Below are positions 19,311-40,600 of a DNA stretch of 64,000 nucleotides, piece by piece. A program made the position numbers and the translations under genes. The stretch's first letter is position 1; each line of letters opens with the position of its first letter. The stretch is from Eledone cirrhosa (lineage: Eukaryota): assembly GCA_964016885.1 (NCBI GenBank), contig OZ024744.1:117738001-117802000 (forward strand), given 5' to 3'. Below the pieces are notes generated by a model. That model was not told the origin of the DNA and ran no database searches. It saw nothing but the letters and a program-made list of their open reading frames with translations.

Positions 19311-19514
19311 GTTGGCATATACACAATAGGAATATATATATAGATATAGATAGGTAAATATACACGGGTGTGTATGATTGTGTATAGAAGATTATATTAA
19401 TAAGAGGAATTCCAACTTTGTCTGATTTACTCGTTTTATTTACAATCCTTTAAAATATATATAATGGTATTATAATGAAATAGTATGATAGAATATTAAA
19501 TTCTAAGTGTTAAT

Positions 19515-19553
19515 TGAACAAGTACTTTCATGCTTTCGCAATCTTCAGGTTCA
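19515..19553 (-). ncRNA. PLE hammerhead ribozyme, copy 2
   Basis: Identical to 15313-15351. Confidence 0.8.
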
Positions 19554-19584
19554 TGATATGTGGTGACAGTCGAGTTTGCAATTT

Positions 19585-19765
19585 TCAACTGTAATGAGAT
19601 GGGTAAATTTCCTACCTTTTATACATTTTATACAGAGAAAAGTGGCTCCAGAATGCAAAGCCCTGTAAACTGTATTTCGACCAATCAGTGTGTAGTTTCA
19701 CTGAATTACTACAGCTGATTGGTTTAAGCGTCACGGCTGGTTGAGCATGCTAACGACCAATAGTC
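19585..19765 (-). promoter_or_regulatory. PLE pLTR Pol II promoter candidate upstream of ORF1
   Basis: Three CCAAT/ATTGG boxes, TATAAAAG at 19623-19616, and Inr-like TCATT/CAGTT about 25-30 nt downstream, followed by the hammerhead. Confidence 0.55.
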
Positions 19766-19928
19766 ATATCCAACGTATCAATTGTTTTGCTTTTTTGAAA
19801 TGATGAAAATAGCATTTTCTATTAATCATCACCATCAACATCACTTTTATTATTATTATTATTGTTGTTGTTGTTGTTGTTAGTGGTCGTGGTCATAGTG
19901 GTAGTAGAAGTAATACCCCTAGGCGTTA

Positions 19929-20672
19929 TTATTGTTCATTTAGCTTGGGTTTGAATTTATCAATAAAATTCTTTTCTTTGATTTTTCTCTTGATTTCATT
20001 TGGGCTGTGTAATTTGTAGAATGGGAATATTATAAATATTCCCTGACCACATGTTGCCAGGTGGCCGCTTAGGGGTATCTGACGGACATTTGGGTCTCTG
20101 ATTTGTTGACGGTGTACCCGTGCACGTTCCGATAGTGCATTTCCAGTTTGACCGACATATAGTTCTTCACAATTCGGGCATTTAATGCAGTAAATTAGAT
20201 TTCTGCTTTTGCAGTTCATATTTGCATTTGTGAATATTTTTCCAGTTTTTGTTTTCATATATTGACCGGCGTGTATGGATTGACATGTGCCGCATCGATT
20301 ATCATTGCATTTAGATACAGTGAATGATTGGTCTTTGTTGTTAAGGTCAAACTTTGCTTTTGTTAGCAATTGCTTCAAATTTTTTGGCTGTCTTTTACTA
20401 AGAGTCAAAGATCGATCTGTGATTAAGCCTTTTAATTCATTACTTTGAGCAATGATCGGTAGGTTTGCTTTGGCAGTGTTGAAGATATTCTGGTGACATG
20501 GGTTGTGTGTCATTATAAATGGTATGACCAGTTCTTGGTTTCTTCTTCTTTGGGTTGTTCTAAGTTGTTGTATAGGTATTTTTATAGCCCGCTGTATGCC
20601 ATTTTCTATAAGTAGAGATGGGTATTTTTGTTTGAGCAAAAATTCTCTTAGTTCTGTTAGGTGTTTGTACCT
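19929..20672 (-). pseudogene. 5'-truncated second copy of PLE ORF2 (linker plus GIY-YIG)
   Basis: Direct repeat of 15727-16470; one substitution seen near the breakpoint. Confidence 0.9.
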
Positions 20673-21006
20673 ACCAGGTACAAACACCTAACATTAAATA
20701 ATAATAATAATAAAAGTGATGTTGATGGTGATGATTAATAGAAAATGCTATTTTCATCATTTCAAAAAAGCAAAACAATTGATACGTTGGATATGACTAT
20801 TGGTCGTTAGCATGCTCAACCAGCCGTGACGCTTAAACCAATCAGCTGTAGTAATTCAGTGAAACTACACACTGATTGGTCGAAATACAGTTTACAGGGC
20901 TTTGCATTCTGGAGCCACTTTTCTCTGTATAAAATGTATAAAAGGTAGGAAATTTACCCATCTCATTACAGTTGAAAATTGCAAACTCGACTGTCACCAC
21001 ATATCA

Positions 21007-21045
21007 TGAACCTGAAGATTGCGAAAGCATGAAAGTACTTGTTCA
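21007..21045 (+). ncRNA. PLE hammerhead ribozyme, copy 3 (inverted pLTR)
   Basis: TGAACCTGAAGATTGCGAAAGCATGAAAGTACTTGTTCA on the + strand. Confidence 0.8.
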
Positions 21046-21167
21046 ATTAACACTTAGAATTTAATATTCTATCATACTATTTCATTATAATACCATTATA
21101 TATATTTTAAAGGATTGTAAATAAAACGAGTAAATCAGACAAAGTTGGAATTCCTCTTATTAATATA

Positions 21168-22108: not shown

Positions 22109-24205
22109 ATCATCATCATCATATCATCATCATCAACGTTTAACGTCCGTGTTCCACGCTTGCATGGGTTTGGACGGGGGTAGTCCCACTTGAGGCAAGA
22201 GTGATTGTCTTGCTCGCATAGGACTGTCTGGCAGGTTTTCTACAGTTGGATGCCCTTCCTAACACCAACCACATTTACAGTGTGGGTCTGGGAGGTTTTT
22301 ACCGTGTTGCCTACACGGCCACATTACAGCGTGGACTGTGTGTTTTTTTGTCGTGACACCTACACGATCTCATTTGTTTCGGCCTCGATGGCGCCGTACC
22401 AACATAACTTTACATAGAACGGGGTGGTGTGGATGGGGTGGGGGTGGTGGCGGTGGGACGGGGTGTATTTTGTTAGAGATGCCTACTGGCTGGAGTAGGT
22501 TTTACTATATATTTAGGTAAGGCGGGTCTTCTCTGTTACTGAGTACCGCCAAAGGTCTCGGTCCAGTGACATTGTCTTGGAGAGGTGTAAGTGTGTGATG
22601 TCGGAGTTTATCAGCTCGTCCCAGGTTTTTCTAGGTCTGCCTATTCCGTGACTACCGTCTATCTTTATTGCCCTGCACTTTGTTATACAGCTATCGACTT
22701 TCATGCGCATCACGTGTCCATACCAACGTAGCCTTCTCTCGAGTAAACAACATCTGATCCCTCTTATCTCTAATTTTTTCCTTAGTTCGTTTATGCTTTG
22801 CCGTTCACGTATATTACTGTTACACATCCAGCGGAGCATGCAAGCTTCGTTCCTCTCTAGTCTGCGTATATCCTCTGCACACAATGCCCAGGCCTCACTG
22901 CCATGCAGCATTGCTGTTCGTATGCAGGCATCGTACAACCTGCCTTTCATTTTTAGGGAGAACCCTTTAGCAGCTAATAGTGGTATAAGCTCTCTGAACT
23001 TTTTCCAACCAGTTCTGACTCTAGCTACAGTACTTTCAGAGCACCCTCCCCCACTGCTGATTTTATCGCCCAGGTAACGGAAGCTGTCCACTATTTCTAT
23101 AGAACCCTCTGCGCAATTGAAAGAGCTAGTATTTCGTGGGCACTTGCTGCTACTTATTGCACCAGAACACCGGCCACATGTAAAATCTATGTTCTTAGTT
23201 AGCTTACCTGTGATCCCACTACATCTTTTATGCACCCATACTTTGCATTTAGGACATAAAATGGAGTTTCTACCTACGCCTTTCCTACATACCGAGCACG
23301 ACCATTTCCCAGAAGGGACCGCCGCCTTGTTTTCTTTCCTACAAACAAGTACTTTGGTCTTAGCCAGGTTAATTTTAAGTCCTTTTGACTCTAGGCCGTG
23401 CTTCCATGTTTGGAATTTCTTCTCTAGCTCGGCCATTGATTCCGCTATGAGTGTCAGGTCATCTGCGTATAGGAGTTCCCATGGGCAGCCTGTCTTGAAC
23501 TCCTCTGTTATAGCCTGAAGGGCAATAATAAATAGTAGGGGGCTGAGAACAGAGCCCTGATGGACGCCAACTTTTACGCTAAACTCTTCACTATATTCGT
23601 TGTTAATTCTAACCTTGCTGACTGTTTCTTTATACATGGCTTGTATAGCCCTCACAAGCCATTCGTCAACGCCTAGTTTTCTAAGAGCCCACCAGATAAT
23701 GGAGCGGGGGACTCTGTCGAAGGCTTTCTCCAAGTCGACAAAAGCTAAGTAGAGGGGTTTACCTTTAGCTAGGTACTTCTCCTGTAGTTGTCGTACTATG
23801 AAAAGAGCGTCTGTGGTACTTTTGCCTGACACAAACCCGAACTGCATTTCATCTAGGTCAATTCTCTCTCTGATTAGTTGCGCTATTACTTTTTCCGTGA
23901 CCTTCATGACCTGGTCGATTAATTTAATGCCTCTATAGTTACTCCTATCTAGGGCGTCTCCTTTACCCTTATAACAGTTAACGATGATGCTGCTATGCCA
24001 GTCCTTCGGAACAACCCCATTCTGTACGACTTGGTTAACTATGCGGGTGACCATGGTGTGTCCCACCGTGCCAGATGCCTTCAGCATCTCAGCAACTATT
24101 TCCGAAGGCCCAGCCGCCTTACCCGTCTTCATATCCTTGATTGCCTTACTTATTGTACTCCCCTCGACTAACACTGCTGGTCCCTCTATTGGGTCGATAT
24201 GGGGA
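22109..24205 (-). mobile_element. 5'-truncated RTE LINE, family B, with a 3' UTR of about 400 bp
   Basis: Intact RT+PHD ORF 22513-24174 (frame open to about 24204). The 3' UTR contains the AGGAAGGGCATCCA module and ends in an (ATG)n tail. Confidence 0.95.
22513..24174 (-). CDS. RTE reverse transcriptase with PHD finger, partial
   Basis: ORF track; [24 protein letters not shown]4HC3, FRYLG. Confidence 0.9.
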
Positions 24206-24253
24206 TGTATATATATGTATATATATGTATATATGTATATATATGTATATATG

Positions 24254-24300
<47 letters not shown>

Positions 24301-24477
24301 GTATATATATATGTATATATATGTATATATATATGTATATATATATGTATATATATATGTATATATATATATATGTATATGTATATATATGTATATGTAT
24401 ATGTATATATATGTATATATATATGTATATATATATATGTATATATATATGTATATATATATATATGTATATATATG

Positions 24478-24537
<60 letters not shown>

Positions 24538-24575
24538 TGTATATGTATATATGTATATATATATGTATATATATG

Positions 24576-24674
<99 letters not shown>

Positions 24675-24819
24675 ATATATATATATGTATATATATGTAT
24701 ATATATATATATGTATATATATGTATATATATATATGTATATATATATATATGTATATATATGTATATATATATATATATGTATATATATGTATATATAT
24801 GTATATATATATATGTATA

Positions 24820-24858
<39 letters not shown>

Positions 24859-24866
24859 ATATATAT
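24206..24866. repeat. Degenerate (TA)n microsatellite
   Basis: Direct reading. Confidence 0.98.
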
Positions 24867-25056
24867 ATCATCATCACCGTTTTATGTCCGTTCTTCCACG
24901 CTAGCATGGGTTAGACGAGTTGACCTGTTGTGGGCAGTGTCTGGTCGGTTGACCATGCCTTGCTCATACAGGAACTGATTCTGGCTTGATTTCTACAGCT
25001 GGATGCCCTTCCTAACACCAACCTCATTTACAGTGAGTACTGTAAATGAGGTTGGT
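24867..25056 (-). mobile_element. Truncated 3' end of RTE family C with an 18-bp snap-back at its 5' junction
   Basis: Near-identical to about 34808-34980; ends ACCAACCTCATTTACAGT gagt ACTGTAAATGAGGTTGGT. Confidence 0.88.
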
Positions 25057-25119
25057 ATATGTATATATATATATGTATATATATGTATATATATATGTAT
25101 ATATATATGTATATATATA

Positions 25120-25356
25120 GAAAGATTTGAATGGATACAGTTTAGTTGAAAGGAATTTATTGACACGTGTTTCTATAACAGTTACATAACCTAAAACAGC
25201 TATCTACAAACTTTTAGTTATGCAGACATTCAATATTTCAATGTTATTATTTACTGTCATTTCATCAGAATAATATTACTGAGGACCTATTTAGTTTTTA
25301 TAGAGAATATTAGGAGGGAGTGTAATATTTATATTACAACACAACGGAAAATACTG
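25120..25356 (-). mobile_element. Short hammerhead-bearing insert (solo PLE pLTR-like)
   Basis: AT-rich unique 240 bp between TA tracts, containing the motif at 25157-25273. Confidence 0.6.
25157..25273 (-). ncRNA. Minimal type I hammerhead with a greatly extended helix II loop
   Basis: TTATT-CTGATGA-A ATGACAGT [about 70 nt] ACTGTTAT A-GAAA-CACGTG-TC^-AATAA; palindrome ACACGTGT; GUC triplet. Confidence 0.75.
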
Positions 25357-25896
25357 TATATGTATATATATATGTATATATATGTATATATGTATATATA
25401 TGTATATATATGTATATATGTATATATGTATATATATATATATATGTATATATATGTATATATATGTATATATATATATATATGTATATATATGTATATA
25501 TATGTATATATATATATATATGTATATATATGTATATATATATATATATGTATATATATGTATATATATGTATATATATGTGTATATGTGTATATATATG
25601 TGTATATGTGTATATATATGTGTATATGTGTATATATATGTGTGTATATGTATATATATGTGTATATATGTATATATATGTGTATATGTGTATATATATG
25701 TGTATATATGTATATATATGTGTATATATGTATATATATGTGTATATATGTATATATATATGTGTATATATGTATATATATGTGTATATATGTATATATA
25801 TGTGTATATATGTATATATATGTGTATATATGTATATATGTATATATATGTATGTATATATATATATGTTTGTATGTATATATATATATATATATA
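25357..25896. repeat. Degenerate (TA)n/(TG)n microsatellite
   Basis: Direct reading. Confidence 0.97.
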
Positions 25897-26353
25897 TACG
25901 ATATTAAATAAATGGAAACTATATTTATAAAACCATATTTATTTCATTATATATATTTCAGGGATATCATATTAACAATATGCTATGCCTTCCTCAGACA
26001 AAATACAATATAAACAGTTTTATAGATAAATAGATTTGACATACCGTACAGCATCGACTTGTATTTAAAAAGTCTCCACCTCAACCACTGCCTTTTCAAA
26101 TACAAGTCGATGTTGTACGGTATGTCAAATCTATTTATCTATAAAACTGTTTATATTGTATTTTGTCTGAGGAAGGCATAGCATATTGTTAATATGATAT
26201 CCCTGAAATATATATAATGAAATAAATATGGTTTTATAAATATAGTTTCCATTTATTTAATATCGTAAATATACTCCAAATACTTGTCGAGTGCTTTTAT
26301 ATCAGTTATAAATATTTACTAGTTGTAACCCAACAATTTAAATATAACTTTCC

Positions 26354-26356
<3 letters not shown>
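25897..26356 (+). mobile_element. Fold-back PLE pLTR-like insert (176-bp arms, 19-nt loop)
   Basis: 25897-26072 is the reverse complement of 26092-26267 with 2 mismatches. The right arm continues to 26356. Each arm carries a hammerhead. Confidence 0.8.
26159..26224 (+). ncRNA. Minimal type I hammerhead (mirror copy on - at 25940-26005)
   Basis: TATTTTGT-CTGAGGA-AGG c ATA g CATATT gtt AATATG a TAT c CCT-GAAA-TATATA-TA^-ATGAAATA; helix I of 8 bp with two G.U pairs; palindrome ATATATAT. Confidence 0.78.
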
Positions 26357-26384
<28 letters not shown>

Positions 26385-26387
<3 letters not shown>

Positions 26388-28055
26388 TCTTTTACTCTCT
26401 TACCTGTTTCAGCCATCCGGCTGAGGCCATGCTGGGTCACCGCCCTTGTTGCTACACATTTTATCTCCAGCCTGTATAGGTTGGCCACTGCTGTAGGAGG
26501 AAGTTCGTTGTTTCTGCCCTTAGGTTTCCCTCGTGTCTTGCTGTGGGCTCATCCAGGATCCTGGATAGCAAGGTGTCGAAATGTTTCTTCAAGACATCCA
26601 CGTCCACGTCATGCAGATCTCTCAGATTCCTCGGCAGCCTGTTGAAGAGTTGAGGGCCCTTGAACCCCAAGCTATTGCAATATCTGCTCCTTATTCTAGA
26701 TGTGGAAGAAGGGACCTTTGGTGCCACACAGTGACATCCTGTTCGACGGTTGGTCCAGCTCCCAGTGCCAAAGTTTGGTGCTAGTCCCTCCAGGATGTTC
26801 CACATGTAGATCACTGTGTATCTCTCCCGTCTTCGCTCCAAGGAGTAGAGGTTCAGTTCTTTTAGCCTCTCCCAGTAGCTTATCTCCTTCATCATCGCAA
26901 TCTTCTTGGAGTAGCTTCGGTGGATTGACTCAAGCTCCGTGGTTAGTTTGACAGTATGGGGTGACCACAGCTGGGAACAGTAGTCCAGGCGGCTTAGGAC
27001 AAATGTCCTCCATAGTGTCAACATGGTGTCTCGGTCTCTTGTCCGGAAAGTCCTCAAGATCCAGCTAGCGAGTCGTCTGCACATTGTCGACTCTTTCATG
27101 TGTGATGAAAAAGATGCATCATCGCTCATGTCTATACCCAGGTCTCGTATCAATTTTGACATGGGAATATCGGTCCCTCCTAGTCCAGTGTAACTGTGTT
27201 GTACTGTATTTGTGTTTGCAGGTTTGTATTGTAGGGCTTGTAATTTGCCAGCATTAAACTACATGTTGTCTTCCACACATTTGTATATTGGCATCCAGAT
27301 CTTGTTGTAAAAGGGCGTCAGCCGGGTTTTTGATTGCCTGTGCTATCTTAGTGTCATCAGCAGAGCTAGTAAGGGATGTTGTTGTATATACTACAGAGGG
27401 CATGTCTGAGAGAGTCATCAAAAACAGTAGTGGTCCCAGGACTGTGCCTTGGGGCACCCCACTTGTTATTGATATTTCCTTTTAGAGGGCCCCATTTGCT
27501 GCGACTGCCTGGCTTCTGTCCCTTAGGAAGCCATGCAGCCACTCACCTACTTTTCCAGTTATGCCGAGTCCGTGTAGTTTGTGACATATCATTCCGTGGT
27601 TGACCTTGTCAAAGGCCTTCGCAAAGTCAAGATATATCACGTCCACATGTGAGCTGTCTAGTAGTTGTCTTAGTTCTTGGCCTCCGCTCTGCTACCTCCT
27701 TTATGGATAGGGCATATTGTGCCTTCTTTCAGCTCCCTGGGTAGTACACCGCTAGCCAAGGAGCTTCTGAAGAGCATCTTCAGTGGAGTTGCTAAGGCCC
27801 GCTTACATGTTTTTAAGAAGTCTGCTGGGAATCCATCAGGTCCAGCAGCCGAGTCTGTTCTAATTTCATCAATGGCGTACACCACATCCTCCTCCGTTAT
27901 GTCTATGTGGTTGATGGTTGCCATTTCCTCATGTAGTGTTGTGGCATCAAAGAACTCCTCTGGCTTCATTATTTGCATGTGCCTCAGTGGACATGTGAAC
28001 ACACTTTTGTACTGTTCGTTCAGTATTTCACTTATCTCTTGGGGATTCTCGGTCA
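26385..28055 (-). mobile_element. Decayed CR1/L2-group LINE fragment
   Basis: SAAGPDG, PIHKGG, YLDFAKAFDKV, GVPQGTVLGPLLF, ADDTK and LYSLERRRERY spread over several frames; internal deletion near 27670; (TAAAAGAG)-like tail. Confidence 0.88.
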
Positions 28056-28287
28056 ATATATATATATGTTTATTTATGTAATAAACTACTGATAAATATA
28101 TCAGAAAGCCAGTACAATGCGGTAGAAATATAGAAAGGGTAAAGTATGACAAATAAAACAAGTAATGTTTTAGCCAGTATATTTCAACATATTTCAGGGT
28201 AATAACTCCTTTTTCAAATGTGAAATGAAAATGGGTCAAAACAATGGCTCAATCTTGATTTGTCTTTTTTTTTCTAACTTTTTTCAG

Positions 28288-28558
28288 GTTATGGTTTCCT
28301 GTTAACAGATGGAGAGTAAAAGAACTAAAGAATCATTATTGGATTGTGGCTAGTCTGCTATGTTAAACCATGTCATCTTCATCTCCACCTCAACCACTGC
28401 CACCCTCACCTTCATCACCGTCCAATCTTCAGACCACTAATCAGTTATCAGCTGTTGTTAATGACCACTGCTTCCAGTTGGTCACTGAATTCTCTTCAAT
28501 ACCACTTATGCAGGGCAACAGACTTGCACCTTCACAGAACTTCCCTGATAACACTCCT

Positions 28559-28589
<31 letters not shown>

Positions 28590-29486
28590 TTAGCCTCACT
28601 TCAAATATCTTTACAATTCCTTTGACCACCTCAGCTGGACTGGCTTATGCTTTGACTGAAAATAACAAAATTGGTATACAGCGCCTCATAAAACCGAAAA
28701 ATATTTTGGATAAAGATGCAAACAGCAACAATAACAGCAGCAGCAGCAGCACAAACAACAGCAATAACAACAACAGCAACAATGTGACGTCTCAGAAACA
28801 AGATTCCCATCCACAGAGTCATAGACTTTTGGTAGATTCTAACAGTGTGGCGGCAGTGGTAGCAGCAGCAGCAGCAGCAGCTAACATGAACCAAGTCCAA
28901 AATCTAAATGGATCCCAGTTCCAGAAATTTAGTTTTAACCCTGGGAGGCTTCTCAAAGATCAACAGCAACAACAACTCCAAGGAGAGATAACTATGTCAC
29001 ACCAGGAAGACAAATCATCACCATCATCATCAGCAACATCATCATCATCATCTACATTGCCCATCACATTTGCTCCCGATCAATCTCAACAGCAGCAGCA
29101 CGTCAGTATGACCCCGATAGCCACACCGTCGACAGTAGTAGCAGCAGCAGTAACAAATATTGTCACACCAGCAGCAACGGCAGCAGTAAATGTCGCTGTC
29201 CAACCCGTCAGCTCTCAGAACAACAACAACAACACCAACACCACCACCACCACCACCACCAACACCACCAACACCAACAACACCACGACCAGCAGCAGCA
29301 ACAACAACAACTCTATACAATACCAGTCACCTTCAGCTCCCACCGTTGCCGCCACTACTAACACGACCACTACTGCTGCTGCTGCTGCTAACCAAGGGGC
29401 AACAAATGATACTATGTTAAGCGCCACCATTAACTATAATGACAATGAAATGCTGACAGAAGGAACCTTTGATGAAGGAATATTAG
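28288..29486 (+). other. Host gene exon (5' UTR part plus first coding segment)
   Basis: Polypyrimidine tract with CTAAC branch point and TTTTCAG acceptor ending at 28287; AG|GTAATT donor after 29486. Confidence 0.7.
28370..29486 (+). CDS. N-terminal 372 codons of an unidentified host protein; low-complexity, likely disordered (poly-N/Q/S/T/A)
   Basis: ACCATG preceded by an in-frame TAA; 1.1 kb open frame in which the repeats are trinucleotide and frame-preserving; phase-1 donor just before the stop. No recognisable domain. Confidence 0.72.
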
Positions 29487-29546
29487 GTAATTATTAAAAC
29501 AAAATTTCATTGGCATTTCTTTTTGATACTGTTGTTATTGTTATTG

Positions 29547-29765
29547 GCAATATCGGTAGAGCGTCGGACACTGTGCTTTGTATCATAGAGTTACGTCCCT
29601 TTATGTTTTGTGTTCAAACCTCGCCAAGGTTAGCTTTGCCTTTCATCCTTACAGATTCAATAAAATAAAGTACCAGTAATACACTGGTGTTGATTTAATC
29701 GACTTTCTCCCTCCCCTTCAAATTGTTGGCCTTGTACCTAAAGTAGAAACAATTATTATTATTTT
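29547..29765 (+). mobile_element. Diverged SINE with a Nin/Deu-like central domain
   Basis: B-box-like GTTCAAACC, CTTTGCCTTTCATCCTT...ATAAAATAAAGTACCAG motif (family recalled, not searched) and (ATT)n tail. Confidence 0.65.
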
Positions 29766-34797: not shown

Positions 34798-37689
34798 ATC
34801 ATCATCATCATCATCATCACCGTTTTACGTCCGTTCTTCCACGCTAGCATGGGTTAGACGGGTTGTCCTGTTGTGGGCAGTGTCTGGTCGGCTGACCATG
34901 CCTTGCTCATACAGGAACTGATCTGGCTTGATTTCTACAGCTGGATGCCCTTCCTAACACCAACCTCATTTACAGTGAGTGCTGGGTGCTTTTTCGTGGC
35001 GCCTACACGTCCACTTTACAGTGTGGGCTGGGTGCTTTTTTGCCGTGGCACCTCCACGACCACCTTGCGGTGGGGGGGGGGGGCATATTGTTTATATGCT
35101 TCAGCATGTACCCATGGGAGGTCGGGTACCCTGTATTACTGCGTGACGCCAGAAGTCACGGTCGTGTGTCATTGACTTTGAGAGGTGTAGTTGGGTAAGG
35201 TCGGCTTTTATCACCTCATCCCAAGTCATCTTGGGTCTCCCCACTCCGCGGTTTCCATCAACTTCTAGTGCTCTGCACCTTTTTATGCAGCTGTCATCCT
35301 TCATACGCATCACATGTCCATACCAGCGTAACCGCCTCTCCTGCACGCAGCATTTGATTCCTCTTATGCTCAGTCTCTCTCTCAATTCATTTATGCTTTG
35401 TCGTTCACGTATATTACTGTTACACATCCATCGGAGCATGCAGGCTTCGTTTCTCTCTAATCTACGTAAGTCTTCCACCTTCAGCGCCCAGGTCTCACTA
35501 CCATGCAACATCGCTGTTCGGATACACGCATCATACAGTCTGCCTTTCATTCTGAGGGAGAAGCCTTTTGCAGCTAGCAGTGGTAGTAGTTCCCTAAACT
35601 TCTTCCATCCCGTTCTTACCCTAGTTATTGTACTTTCTGAGCACCCACCTCCGTTGCTAATTCGGTCACCTAGGTAGCAGAAGCTGTCTACTGTTTCTAC
35701 AGGGCCCTCCCAGAGATTGGTGGTACTTGTTTCCTGTGGCTGTTTGCTTGCTGTTTCAGCACAGCTGCTGCATGTGAATCCTACATTCTTAATTAAGCTT
35801 CCTGAGATCCCGCTACATCTCTTGTGTACCCATTGTTTGCATTTGGGGCAAAGAATGGAGTTCCTACCTACACCTTTCCTACATACTGAGCAAGGCCATT
35901 TCCCTGAGGGGATCTGGGTTCTGTTTTCTCGTCTACTTATAAGGACCTTAGTCTTTGTCATGTTGACTTTGAGGCCCTTTCTCTCTAGTCCCTGCTTCCA
36001 GGTTTGGAATTTATTCTCTAGTTCTACCATAGATTCAGCTATGAGTGCAAGGTCATCAGCATACAGGAGTTCCCATGGGCATCCGGTCTTAAACTCCTCC
36101 GTTATTGCCTGCAGGACTATGATGAACAGGAGAGGGCTAAGAACAGAGCCCTGGTGGACCCCAACCTGTACGCTAAATTCATCGCTATACTCATTGCCAA
36201 TCCTAACTTTGCTGACTGCTCCCCTATACATGGCTTGTACCGCTTTCACAAGACATTCATCTACTCCTAGTTTTCTAAGAGCCCACCAGATTACTGCACG
36301 TGGAACTCTGTCAAAGGCTTTCTCAAGGTCGACAAATGCCAAGTAGAGTGGCTTACTTTTAGCTAGGTACTTTTCCTGTAATTGCCTCACAAGGAAGAGC
36401 GCATCAGTGGTGCCTTTCCCTGGTACAAACCCAAATTGCATCTCGTCTATATTCACCCGGTCCCTAATCAGCTGTGCTATAACTCTTTCTGTTACTTTCA
36501 TGACCTGGTCCATCAACTTTATACCTCTATAGTTTCCTCTATCTAGTGCATCGCCTTTACCTTTGTAGCAGTTGACAATGATGCTACTGCACCAGTCTTT
36601 TGGTATGGCCCCCTCTAGTATTACCTGGTTAACGATACGTGTGGTTATAGTGTGACCTACAGACCCAGATGCCTTCAGCATCTCGGCAGCTATACCCGAT
36701 GGACCGGTTGCCTTCCCTATCTTCATATCTCTGATTGCCTTACTTACTACGCTGCCGCTGACTTGTACTGCTGGTCCCTCTATAGGGTCTACGTGGGGTA
36801 GGGTCTCTTCTTCCCATGCATTCTCCTCATTTAGTAATCTATCATAATGACTCTTCCATGCATCTTTCTTCTCAGCACTTGTGAGGGCAAGCTCACCTTT
36901 ATCATTCCGGATACACTTCTCTCCAATGACATCACAACTATCTCTGACACACTGCCTCGCAATCTTGAATACCTCCTGTTTCTGGTCCTCACGTTGTAAA
37001 ACATGCTTGAATTTTCTATCCTCTGCTTCCCTCCTAGCTAAGTATACTTGTCGCCTAGCTTCCCTCTTGGTCTCTATGTAATGTACCCTGCTCCCCCCGT
37101 TCTTCCATTCTTTCCATGCCTGTCTCTTGGCCTTGACTGCTTCATCTACCTTATTGTTCCACCACCAAGTCACTCTCCTCCTGCTTGAGGTCTTACTCCA
37201 GCCACAAACCTCATCCGTCGCCTCTAGTAAGTTATTTTTTAGGAACTCCCAGTTCTCTTCTACGTTAAATGTCTCTATCTGTTCTTCTTTACTGTCGTAG
37301 GCGTTGAGTAAAATATCTTTAAATCTGTTACTGGTTGAGGGGACTTTCAGCTTCCAGGTCTTTCTTCTCCAGGTTGGCCTCTGTTTCAGGGCTCGTCTAG
37401 TTCTGACCGTGAGGTCGCTGACAACTAAGCTATGTTGGGATGTACATTCCTCACTAGGGAAGGCTTTTGTGTTTACGACCGTCCATCTGTCACGTCCTCT
37501 GATGAGGATAAAATCTAACTGACTAGAGTGCTCCCCTGATCTATAGGTGATCAGGTGGTTGTCGGGTTTTTTAAAGTTTGTGTTACATATCGACATGTCA
37601 TTGGCGTCGCAGAATTCTAGAAGTCTGAATCCTTCCTCATTCCTTGTGCCAACTCCATGGCCTCCATGTACTCTATTTAAGCCGTCGCA
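34798..37689 (-). mobile_element. 5'-truncated RTE LINE, family C, inserted in a satellite TA spacer
   Basis: Intact APE(part)-RT-PHD ORF ending at 35101; 300-bp 3' UTR; (ATG)n tail; no clear target-site duplication. Confidence 0.96.
35101..37689 (-). CDS. RTE APE-RT polyprotein with PHD finger, 5'-partial
   Basis: ORF track, 873 aa (the first 11 or so residues are satellite read-in). Confidence 0.9.
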   Translation of the reverse strand, partial: CDGLNRVHGGHGVGTRNEEGFRLLEFCDANDMSICNTNFKKPDNHLITYRSGEHSSQLDFILIRGRDRWTVVNTKAFPSEECTSQHSLVVSDLTVRTRRALKQRPTWRRKTWKLKVPSTSNRFKDILLNAYDSKEEQIETFNVEENWEFLKNNLLEATDEVCGWSKTSSRRRVTWWWNNKVDEAVKAKRQAWKEWKNGGSRVHYIETKREARRQVYLARREAEDRKFKHVLQREDQKQEVFKIARQCVRDSCDVIGEKCIRNDKGELALTSAEKKDAWKSHYDRLLNEENAWEEETLPHVDPIEGPAVQVSGSVVSKAIRDMKIGKATGPSGIAAEMLKASGSVGHTITTRIVNQVILEGAIPKDWCSSIIVNCYKGKGDALDRGNYRGIKLMDQVMKVTERVIAQLIRDRVNIDEMQFGFVPGKGTTDALFLVRQLQEKYLAKSKPLYLAFVDLEKAFDRVPRAVIWWALRKLGVDECLVKAVQAMYRGAVSKVRIGNEYSDEFSVQVGVHQGSVLSPLLFIIVLQAITEEFKTGCPWELLYADDLALIAESMVELENKFQTWKQGLERKGLKVNMTKTKVLISRRENRTQIPSGKWPCSVCRKGVGRNSILCPKCKQWVHKRCSGISGSLIKNVGFTCSSCAETASKQPQETSTTNLWEGPVETVDSFCYLGDRISNGGGCSESTITRVRTGWKKFRELLPLLAAKGFSLRMKGRLYDACIRTAMLHGSETWALKVEDLRRLERNEACMLRWMCNSNIRERQSINELRERLSIRGIKCCVQERRLRWYGHVMRMKDDSCIKRCRALEVDGNRGVGRPKMTWDEVIKADLTQLHLSKSMTHDRDFWRHAVIQGTRPPMGTC

Positions 37690-40600
37690 GTATATATATA
37701 GTTGTGATGTCACTGGTACCAAGCTGTATCAGACATTACCTTTCTCTTGGACAACATCATATATAATATATATATAGTATATATATAGTTGTGATGTCAC
37801 TGGTACCAAGCTGTATCAGACATTACCTTACCCTTGGACGACATCATATATAATATATATATAGTATATATATATAGTTGTGATGTCACTGGTACCAAGC
37901 TGTATCAGACATTACCTTTCCCTTGGACAACATCATATATAATATATATATATAGTATATATATAGTTGTGATGTCACTGGTACCAAGCTGTATCAGACA
38001 TTACCTTTCCCTCGGACAACATCATATATAATATATATAGTATATATATAGTTGTGATGTCACTGGTACCAAGCTGTATCAGACATTACCTTTCCCTTGG
38101 ACAACATCATATATAATATATATAGTATATATATAGTTGTGATGTCACTGGTACCAAGCTGTATCAGACATAACCTTTCCCTTGGACAACATCATATATA
38201 ATATATATATAGTATATATATAGTTGTGATGTCACTGGTACCAAGCTGTATCAGACATTACCTTTCTCTTGGACAACATCATATATAATATATATATAGT
38301 ATATATATAGTTGTGATGTCACTGGTACCAAGCTGTATCAGACATTACCTTTCTCTTGGACAACATCATATATAATATATATAGTATATATATAGTTGTG
38401 ATGTCATTGGTACCAAGCTGTATCAGACATTACCTGTCCCTTGGACAACATCATATATAATATATATAGTATATATATATAGTTGTGATGTCACTGGTAC
38501 CAAGCTGTATCAGACATTACCTTTCTCTTGGACAACATCATATATATAATATATATATAGTATATATATAGTTGTGATGTCACTGGTACCAAGCTGTATC
38601 AGACATTACCTGTCCCTTGGACAACATCATATATAATATATATAGTATATATATAGTTGTGATGTCACTGGTACCAAGCTGTATCAGACATTACCTTTCT
38701 CTTGGACAACATCATATATATAATATATATATAGTATATATATAGTTGTGATGTCACTGGTACCAAGCTGTATCAGACATTACCTTTCCCTTGGACAACA
38801 TCATATATAATATATATAGTATATATATAGTTCTGATGTCACTGGTACCAAGCTGTATCAGACATTACCTGTCCCTTGGACAACATCATATATAATATAT
38901 ATAGTATATATATAGTTCTGATGTCACTGGTACCAAGCTGTATCAGACATTACCTTTCTCTTGGACAACATCATATATATAATATATATATAGTATATAT
39001 ATAGTTGTGATGTCACTGGTACCAAGCTGTATCAGACATTACCTTTCCCTTGGACAGCATCATATATAATATATATAGTATATATATAGTTGTGATGTCA
39101 CTGGTACCAAGCTGTATCAGACATTACCTGTCCCTTGGACAACATCATATATAATATATATAGTATATATATATAGTTGTGATGTCACTGGTACCAAGCT
39201 GTATCAGACATTACCTGTCCCTTGGACAACATCATATATAATATATATAGTATATATATAGTTGTGATGTCACTGGTACCAAGCTGTATCAGACATTACC
39301 TTTCCCTTGGACAACATCATATATAATATATATATAGTATATATATAGTTGTGATGTCACTGGTACCAAGCTGTATCAGACATTACCTTTCCCTTGGACA
39401 ACATCATATATAATATATATATAGTATATATATAGTTGTGATGTCACTGGTACCAAGCTGTATCAGACATTACCTTTCCCTTGGACAACATCATATATAA
39501 TATATATATAGTATATATATAGTTGTGATGTCACTGGTACCAAGCTGTATCAGACATTACCTTTCTCTTGGACAACATCATATATAATATATATATAGTA
39601 TATATATAGTTGTGATGTCACTGGTACCAAGCTGTATCAGACATTACCTTTCTCTTGGACAACATCATATATAATATATATATAGTATATATATAGTTGT
39701 GATGTCACTGGTACCAAGCTGTATCTGACATTACCTTTCTCTTGGACAACATCATATATAATATATATAATATATATAGTTGTGATGTCACTGGTACCAA
39801 GCTGTATCAGACATTACCTTTCTCTTGGACAACATCATATATAATATATATAGTATATATATAGTTGTGATGTCACTGGTACCAAGCTGTATCAGACATT
39901 ACCTTTCCCTTGGACAACATCATATATAATATATATATAGTATATATATATAGTTGTGATGTCACTGGTACCAAGCTGTATCAGACATTACCTTTCTCTT
40001 GGACAACATCATATATAATATATATATAGTATATATATAGTTGTGATGTCACTGGTACCAAGCTGTATCAGACATTACCTTTCTCTTGGACAACATCATA
40101 TATAATATATATAGTATATATATAGTTGTGATGTCACTGGTACCAAGCTGTATCAGACATTACCTTTCTCTTGGACAACATCATATATATAATATTTATA
40201 TAGTATATATATAGTTGTGATGTCACTGGTACCAAGCTGTATCAGACATTACCTTTCTCTTGGACAACATCATATATAATATATATAGAATATATATAGT
40301 TCTGATGTCACTGGTACCAAGCTGTATCAGACATTACCTTTCTCTTGGACAACATCATATATATAATATATATATAGTATATATATAGTTGTGATGTCAC
40401 TGGTACCAAGCTGTATCAGACATTACCTTTCTCTTGGACAACATCATATATAATATATATAGTATATATATAGTTGTGATGTCACTGGTACCAAGCTGTA
40501 TCAGACATTACCTTTCCCTTGGACAACATCATATATAATATATATAGTATATATATAGTTGTGATGTCACTGGTACCAAGCTGTTTCAGACATTACCTTT

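Follow-up and report, generated by a model that had tools for sequence, protein, structure and literature searches.

A 20-nt copy of a nearby host exon at the arm junction of a Penelope-like insertion in Eledone cirrhosa

A fold-back insertion of a Penelope-like element (PLE) in the genome of Eledone cirrhosa carries, at the join of its two inverted arms, a 20-nt copy of a host exon situated 2.3 kb downstream. We observe here a real but rare, locally templated junction insert in an otherwise ordinary PLE fold-back. The insertion join is probably a repair scar without function, and the capture is likely a one-off copying slip at insertion, not the product of a tagging system. As for its origin, the chances are about even that the insert was copied once, when a cDNA end paired through 7 bases with the host sense strand (probably a nascent transcript) and was extended before the ends were joined; repair copying from nearby DNA is nearly as good an explanation. 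All coordinates refer to the window, that is, the whole analysed stretch of 64,000 nt (contig OZ024744.1, positions 117,738,001 to 117,802,000, forward strand).

The insertion, its loop and the host exon

The features of the locus are as follows.

25357–25896, no strand: target tract of (TA)n/(TATG)n repeats flanking the insertion on the left; TA repeats also at 26357–26386
25897–26072, minus: left (inverted) arm, a 5'-truncated pLTR copy beginning at the family's fixed first start and abutting the (TA)n target
26073–26092, plus: 20-nt junction insert, the host exon copy; its first and last bases are common to the element
26092–26267, plus: right arm, a 5'-truncated pLTR copy
26151–26231, plus: putative minimal motif of a type I hammerhead; the left arm has its mirror image on the minus strand
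26151–26166 with 26217–26231, plus: stem I of this motif, followed by CUGAGGA (26167–26173), stem II (26174–26204) and GAAA (26205–26208)
26268–26355, plus: tail (about 88 nt), present on a single arm and reaching to the second fixed start; full-length copies continue from it into the ORF
28288–29486, plus: host exon, with the acceptor ending at 28287, the donor GT at 29487 and an ORF from the ATG at 28370
28382–28402, plus: donor of the insert, the copied 20-mer plus A28402

The inverted arms described in the original prediction (25897–26072 and 26092–26267) are present, pairing over 176 bp with two mismatches (26067, 26051), and so is the identity between the loop and the exon: 26073–26092 matches 28382–28401 at 20 of 20 positions, in the same orientation, with identity extending on neither side. 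The match was said to fill the loop exactly; it does span 20 nt, but T26073 and C26092 fit the element as well, leaving 18 nt that are foreign only and a 1-nt overlap on each side. The 20-mer is found at exactly two places in the whole 3.0-Gb assembly (2,995,841,428 bases), the loop and the exon, so it is neither common genome-wide nor part of the element consensus; places resembling it number two at one mismatch and 96 at two mismatches.

A chance origin, in which scrambled element words and untemplated bases happen to match the exon, could appeal to the likeness of 12 of the 20 nt to words of the element (TCAAC, CACTGCC). However, the probability of such a match is about 1e-7 per loop whatever the origin of the loop, and the genome-wide counts refute this explanation, whose likelihood we consider negligible. 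The prediction had likewise called a chance match very improbable, and the estimates bear this out: none of 100 shuffles of the window reproduced it, its probability within 5 kb is approximately 1–2e-7, and it stays below 0.01 even assuming one chance copy per genome and 2,380 insertions. We rejected the possibility that the loop came down from a master copy or a variant of the element, the 20-mer being confined to these two places in the genome. A reading as a target-site duplication was also rejected, with one arm lying outside the repeat pair and the family targeting TA tracts.

The loop is known from the assembly; in the read contigs (four runs from two samples, 25897–29600) the loop region is dominated by copies of the family, and the reads speak neither for nor against it. 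Hairpins are hard to sequence, and a chimeric library molecule or a bad consensus at the hairpin tip might be suspected, the more so as two private substitutions of the left arm, at 26067 and 26051, lie close to the loop, at distances of 5 and 21 nt (P about 0.001–0.005, given the family rate of 8 in 3,298 nt). Such an artefact is nevertheless improbable: 80 sister hairpins have been assembled with clean loops, the 1-nt overlaps offer no k-mer path between the loop and the exon, and the insert ends on a mechanistically meaningful 7-mer (see below).

The copied 20-mer corresponds to codons 5–11 of the ORF starting at 28370. The predicted host coding sequence is real: two relatives, with 81% and 43% identity, keep the N-terminus MSSSSPP(Q/R)PLP, the closer being an "Uncharacterized protein" of Octopus bimaculoides, and contigs of run X2 follow the exon, covering 28283–29491 in pieces and departing from the DNA at the donor site. 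Unlike run X2, DNA-like runs span both exon boundaries; run X2, the library type of which is not on record, appears to be RNA. On sequence evidence, the exon is the donor and copying ran from the exon to the loop, because the exon's protein is conserved in relatives. This product is of low complexity, and its function is assigned neither by Pfam (nothing above the cut-off for the host ORF) nor by homologues, none having been found among longer proteins. No upstream host exon was located within 124 kb; the insertion would occupy an intron of the host gene, and the gene would be expressed in the germline.

Other features are seen around the exon. The host ORF is without about ten residues (DVSVRNNL-like) near the exon end (29464–29470), present in both relatives. 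A dispersed repeat fragment just upstream of the splice acceptor (28150–28245) has many copies of 85–93% identity and resembles another PLE terminal repeat. Downstream of the exon, about 31 kb (31700–63260) are occupied by an 85-bp satellite, broken by an RTE-like LINE ORF (35101–37728).

The element family and its head-to-head insertions

Judged by its motifs, not by a tree, the element is a young EN+ PLE with Hydra-clade features. The right arm and tail (26093–26357) are 100% identical to many family copies (40 of the 1,379 candidates were scored), and the family shows a pLTR, tandem or inverted copies and a one-sided tail, as is characteristic of EN+ PLEs. Upstream of the right-arm repeat, full-length copies have an ORF of about 740 aa, in which an RT motif YRDD and, C-terminally, a GIY-YIG-type endonuclease motif IVY...YVG, with one Cys between IVY and YVG, were recognized by eye; Pfam gave no match above the cut-off for this ORF. 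The Hydra-clade features comprise RWR (a variant of the RWK-type motif), DKT, CNCRDRSKC (the CxCX5C linker), CDLC (CxxC) and CKH (CxH), with no CCHH, and the (TA)n flanks of the family agree with the target preference of the clade. The Hydra clade is generally short (<3 kb), which is stated as a tendency (Craig et al., 2021, PMC8557442); the unit studied here exceeds this at about 3.9 kb, the cause being a long simple-repeat spacer.

A second, unrelated PLE insertion in a TA tract is seen by eye at 19342–21161, with long inverted arms enclosing a truncated GIY-YIG ORF (19929–20687, minus strand; Pfam PF01541). Elsewhere in the genome, the palindromic insertions L050, L057 and L059 have arms of about 3 kb or more and two opposed partial ORFs.

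The exact 27-mer at the outer end of the left arm is preceded by TA repeats at at least 2,380 places. In a sample consisting of the first 100 listed places (99 loci) and 12 longer copies, many insertions are composed of two opposed arms of any length, one starting from the 27-mer base and the other from the tail end about 88 nt on, both fixed starts abutting the (TA)n target. Inverted arms are an established feature of PLEs (Arkhipova et al., 2013, PMC3846280; Craig et al., 2021, PMC8557442), and a PLE protein has been described to extend both cut strands from two start sites, which define the tail (Frangieh et al., 2024, PMC11167929). The arms fit this mode of synthesis, and the "loop" is thus where the two cDNA ends of an ordinary head-to-head insertion were joined.

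For comparison of the joins we collected short hairpins via exact anchors, obtaining 82, of which 81 are distinct; this set has short loops only and misses sub-variants. The same end base, ...GGCAGT, terminates 28 of the 81 left arms and 17 of the 81 right arms, while only one left arm and three right arms read past it. The stop is kept across subfamilies (ACTGCC/ACTACC), and in 10 of the 28 left arms it is followed by C, which is compatible with a copied cap. We infer that the common stop is the RNA 5' end; this shared strong stop, often followed by C or T, is probably a capped RNA start inside the pLTR. The arms are joined mostly with 0–2 nt overlaps or by short self-copied inserts, 1-nt overlaps being among the commonest types. 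The terminal TTGGCA(GT) is re-copied out of its upstream context in four places (C5:88079634, C9:13509180, C6:17152507, C8:1170483). At the first two of these, TA runs enclose two or three copies of the terminal cDNA 8-mer TTGGCAGT, a pattern that would arise if the polymerase realigned and copied the RNA 5' end anew. These repeats recall telomerase repeat addition, and PLE RTs are sister to TERT.

Capture of host sequence is not systematic in this family. The loops of the other 80 of the 81 hairpins are derived from the element itself (no non-element run longer than 8 nt), only the loop at 26073–26092 being foreign. Among two-ended insertions, which partly overlap the hairpin set, local capture is seen in 1 of 97. 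Thirteen others had non-family runs of at least 8 nt, one of them a nested LINE matching both own and control flanks, and none fitted its own flanks better than control flanks, as compared over 1.3–5 kb a side, a range that more distant donors would escape; hardly any foreign inserts, however, called for a donor. No clear case was found at 37 one-ended starts, where end calls are noisy. In one insertion, L109, a 37-nt non-family segment lies about 1,163 nt in, with no donor within 10 kb.

The arms carry a putative type I hammerhead, with a CUGANGA and GAAA core, three stems and an NUH site, its activity being predicted from the sequence; its stem III has 2 bp and cutting is predicted after 26216. 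Each of the hammerhead core columns is kept in 83–86 of 86 distinct rows (out of 278), position 7 takes all four bases, and stem II has two-sided changes, G-C to A-T in five rows and T-A to C-G in four. An Rfam scan at gathering thresholds gave no hit, and the minimum free energy fold of the region differs from the hammerhead. The proposal of a ribozyme in each arm stands insofar as both arms have the motif, one per DNA strand, but within any one transcript the sense hammerhead would be present once, together with its complement, and not as two ribozymes. We also abandoned the view that the left arm starts at the ribozyme cut, since the best fold cuts after 26216, about 50 nt inside the arm end.

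The loop had been interpreted as a spacer-like tag of the locus, that is, a programmed or selected local capture giving an antisense guide displayed on a ribozyme-bearing stem. The loop is indeed an exact copy of the host CDS start. Still, this is not spacer acquisition, because only one of the 81 hairpins is foreign; recurrent capture at a fixed position across copies, as in CRISPR, is not observed, and no other foreign unique continuation was noticed by eye in 107 strong-stop rows (7 of 7 and 100 of 149). The display of the loop is also a weak point, as the hammerhead fold (–6 kcal/mol) is far weaker than the 176-bp duplex (–267 kcal/mol), which would sequester it. We therefore consider a tag of this kind very improbable.

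Templating of the junction insert

The insert ends with ACTGCC, and the next base of the donor, which was not copied, is A and also matches the element. The word ACTGCCA (28396–28402) complements the cDNA 3' end that is commonest in the family; no other such 7-mer, on either strand, lies nearer to the insertion. Only 1 of 12,358 20-mer positions (23001–29200, both strands) has this property, in a test devised post hoc and applied to one event. The junction thus has the marks of a locally templated insertion: 20 of 20 identical positions at 2.3 kb, 1-nt overlaps and a word of 7 nt that donor and cDNA end have in common. The original suggestion, that the RT of the element or a repair polymerase jumped to a template in host DNA close by or in pre-mRNA, is supported by the unique, non-element 20-mer and by this 7-nt complement in the donor.

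The events could have proceeded in four steps. Both cut strands would prime reverse transcription, and the common arm stop would correspond to the RNA 5' end. The bottom-strand cDNA end (...TGGCAGT) would then anneal to ACTGCCA at 28396 and gain 14 nt, and realignment with 1-nt overlaps would drop 8 element bases and join the product to the trimmed left arm. The sense template would most easily be nascent RNA, because resection to the right of the break should expose the antisense strand; the orientation of the insert fits RNA and DNA templates equally. The last step is needed because the 8 bases AATTCAAC, which simple anneal-and-extend would keep, are missing here and natively present in all family copies. 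Such a second slip is plausible, given that the family realigns with 0–2 nt overlaps and re-copies the terminal 8-mer out of context. The two private substitutions speak against this course of events, as they fit error-prone repair or a poor consensus. In its most specific form, with a Penelope-type RT that reaches the RNA 5' end, pairs over 7 nt with the transcript just being made from the target gene and jumps onto it, the proposal is tentative and, taken as a whole, rather unlikely.

Alternatively, the insert may be DNA-templated. By a polymerase theta-type or microhomology-mediated switch, a trimmed arm end would have copied 20 nt from duplex or resected DNA in the vicinity, be it during the joining of the two cDNAs or afterwards, at the broken tip of the 176-bp palindrome. 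Both arms end 12–13 nt short of the family's usual stop and two substitutions flank the join; iterated self-templated inserts at sister junctions (L021, L165, L188) are typical of such repair, and ACTGCCA could have ended the synthesis, not begun it. Moreover, PolQ adds neighbour-copied nucleotides at retroelement cDNA joins (PMC3280974), and templated insertions exist as germline variants (PMC8421209). On the other hand, resection would expose the antisense strand, which cannot pair with the cDNA end, so that priming would have to occur on 1 nt at a distance of 2.3 kb, and the loss of 8 nt is equally unexplained. We regard DNA-templated repair as a serious possibility, if somewhat short of an even one.

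Relation to known systems

A single scar matters little in itself; it does show a Penelope-type cDNA end drawing on host sequence that lies kilobases from the target. The family is the more useful by-product, with at least 2,380 starts at one fixed base, a second start about 88 nt off and a shared arm stop, and it bears on the origin of PLE inverted repeats, either from two primed strands or from antisense self-priming, as proposed by Arkhipova et al. (2013, PMC3846280). If the jump onto a transcript is true, rare junctions would record which host RNA the germline was producing at the target, and PLEs would have a route for picking up host sequence between their arms. No report of local host capture by a PLE was found in a literature search covering listings and passages of main texts.

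The family resembles known PLEs in its head-to-head pLTR arms, one-sided tail, pLTR hammerhead, (TA)n targets and two RT starts (PMC8557442, PMC3846280, PMC11167929). It differs in the tail, about 88 nt here compared to 30–40 nt there, and in the join, which holds 20 nt copied from a unique host sequence of the locus itself, while the captures described in Adineta are whole genes or segments moved elsewhere.

A nearby pre-mRNA co-inserted with L1 has been read as an RT strand switch, along with twin priming (Nam et al., 2023, PMC10191854). That case is also a rare capture of near-target sequence during retrotransposition; it is, however, a single somatic one in human, while here we deal with a PLE, 20 nt and a 7-nt homology clue, the RNA template being our suggestion. 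In R2, the cDNA 3' end, often at full length, serves as primer for additional synthesis, for the most part on itself and less often on rDNA nearby (Zhang et al., 2024, PMC11371274). The junction studied here resembles these snap-back and extra-template 5' junctions in that a cDNA 3' end primes additional synthesis; unlike it, they arise in engineered insertions into rDNA, and the extra RNA templates are almost always U6. Finally, in Drosophila, joins of group II intron cDNA have been seen to contain extra nucleotides that depend on PolQ (PMC3280974), and templated insertions are described at breaks (PMC11724301; PMC8421209). They share with our locus a short, neighbour-copied insert at the join, but their donors are mostly adjacent, whereas here the donor is 2.3 kb away.
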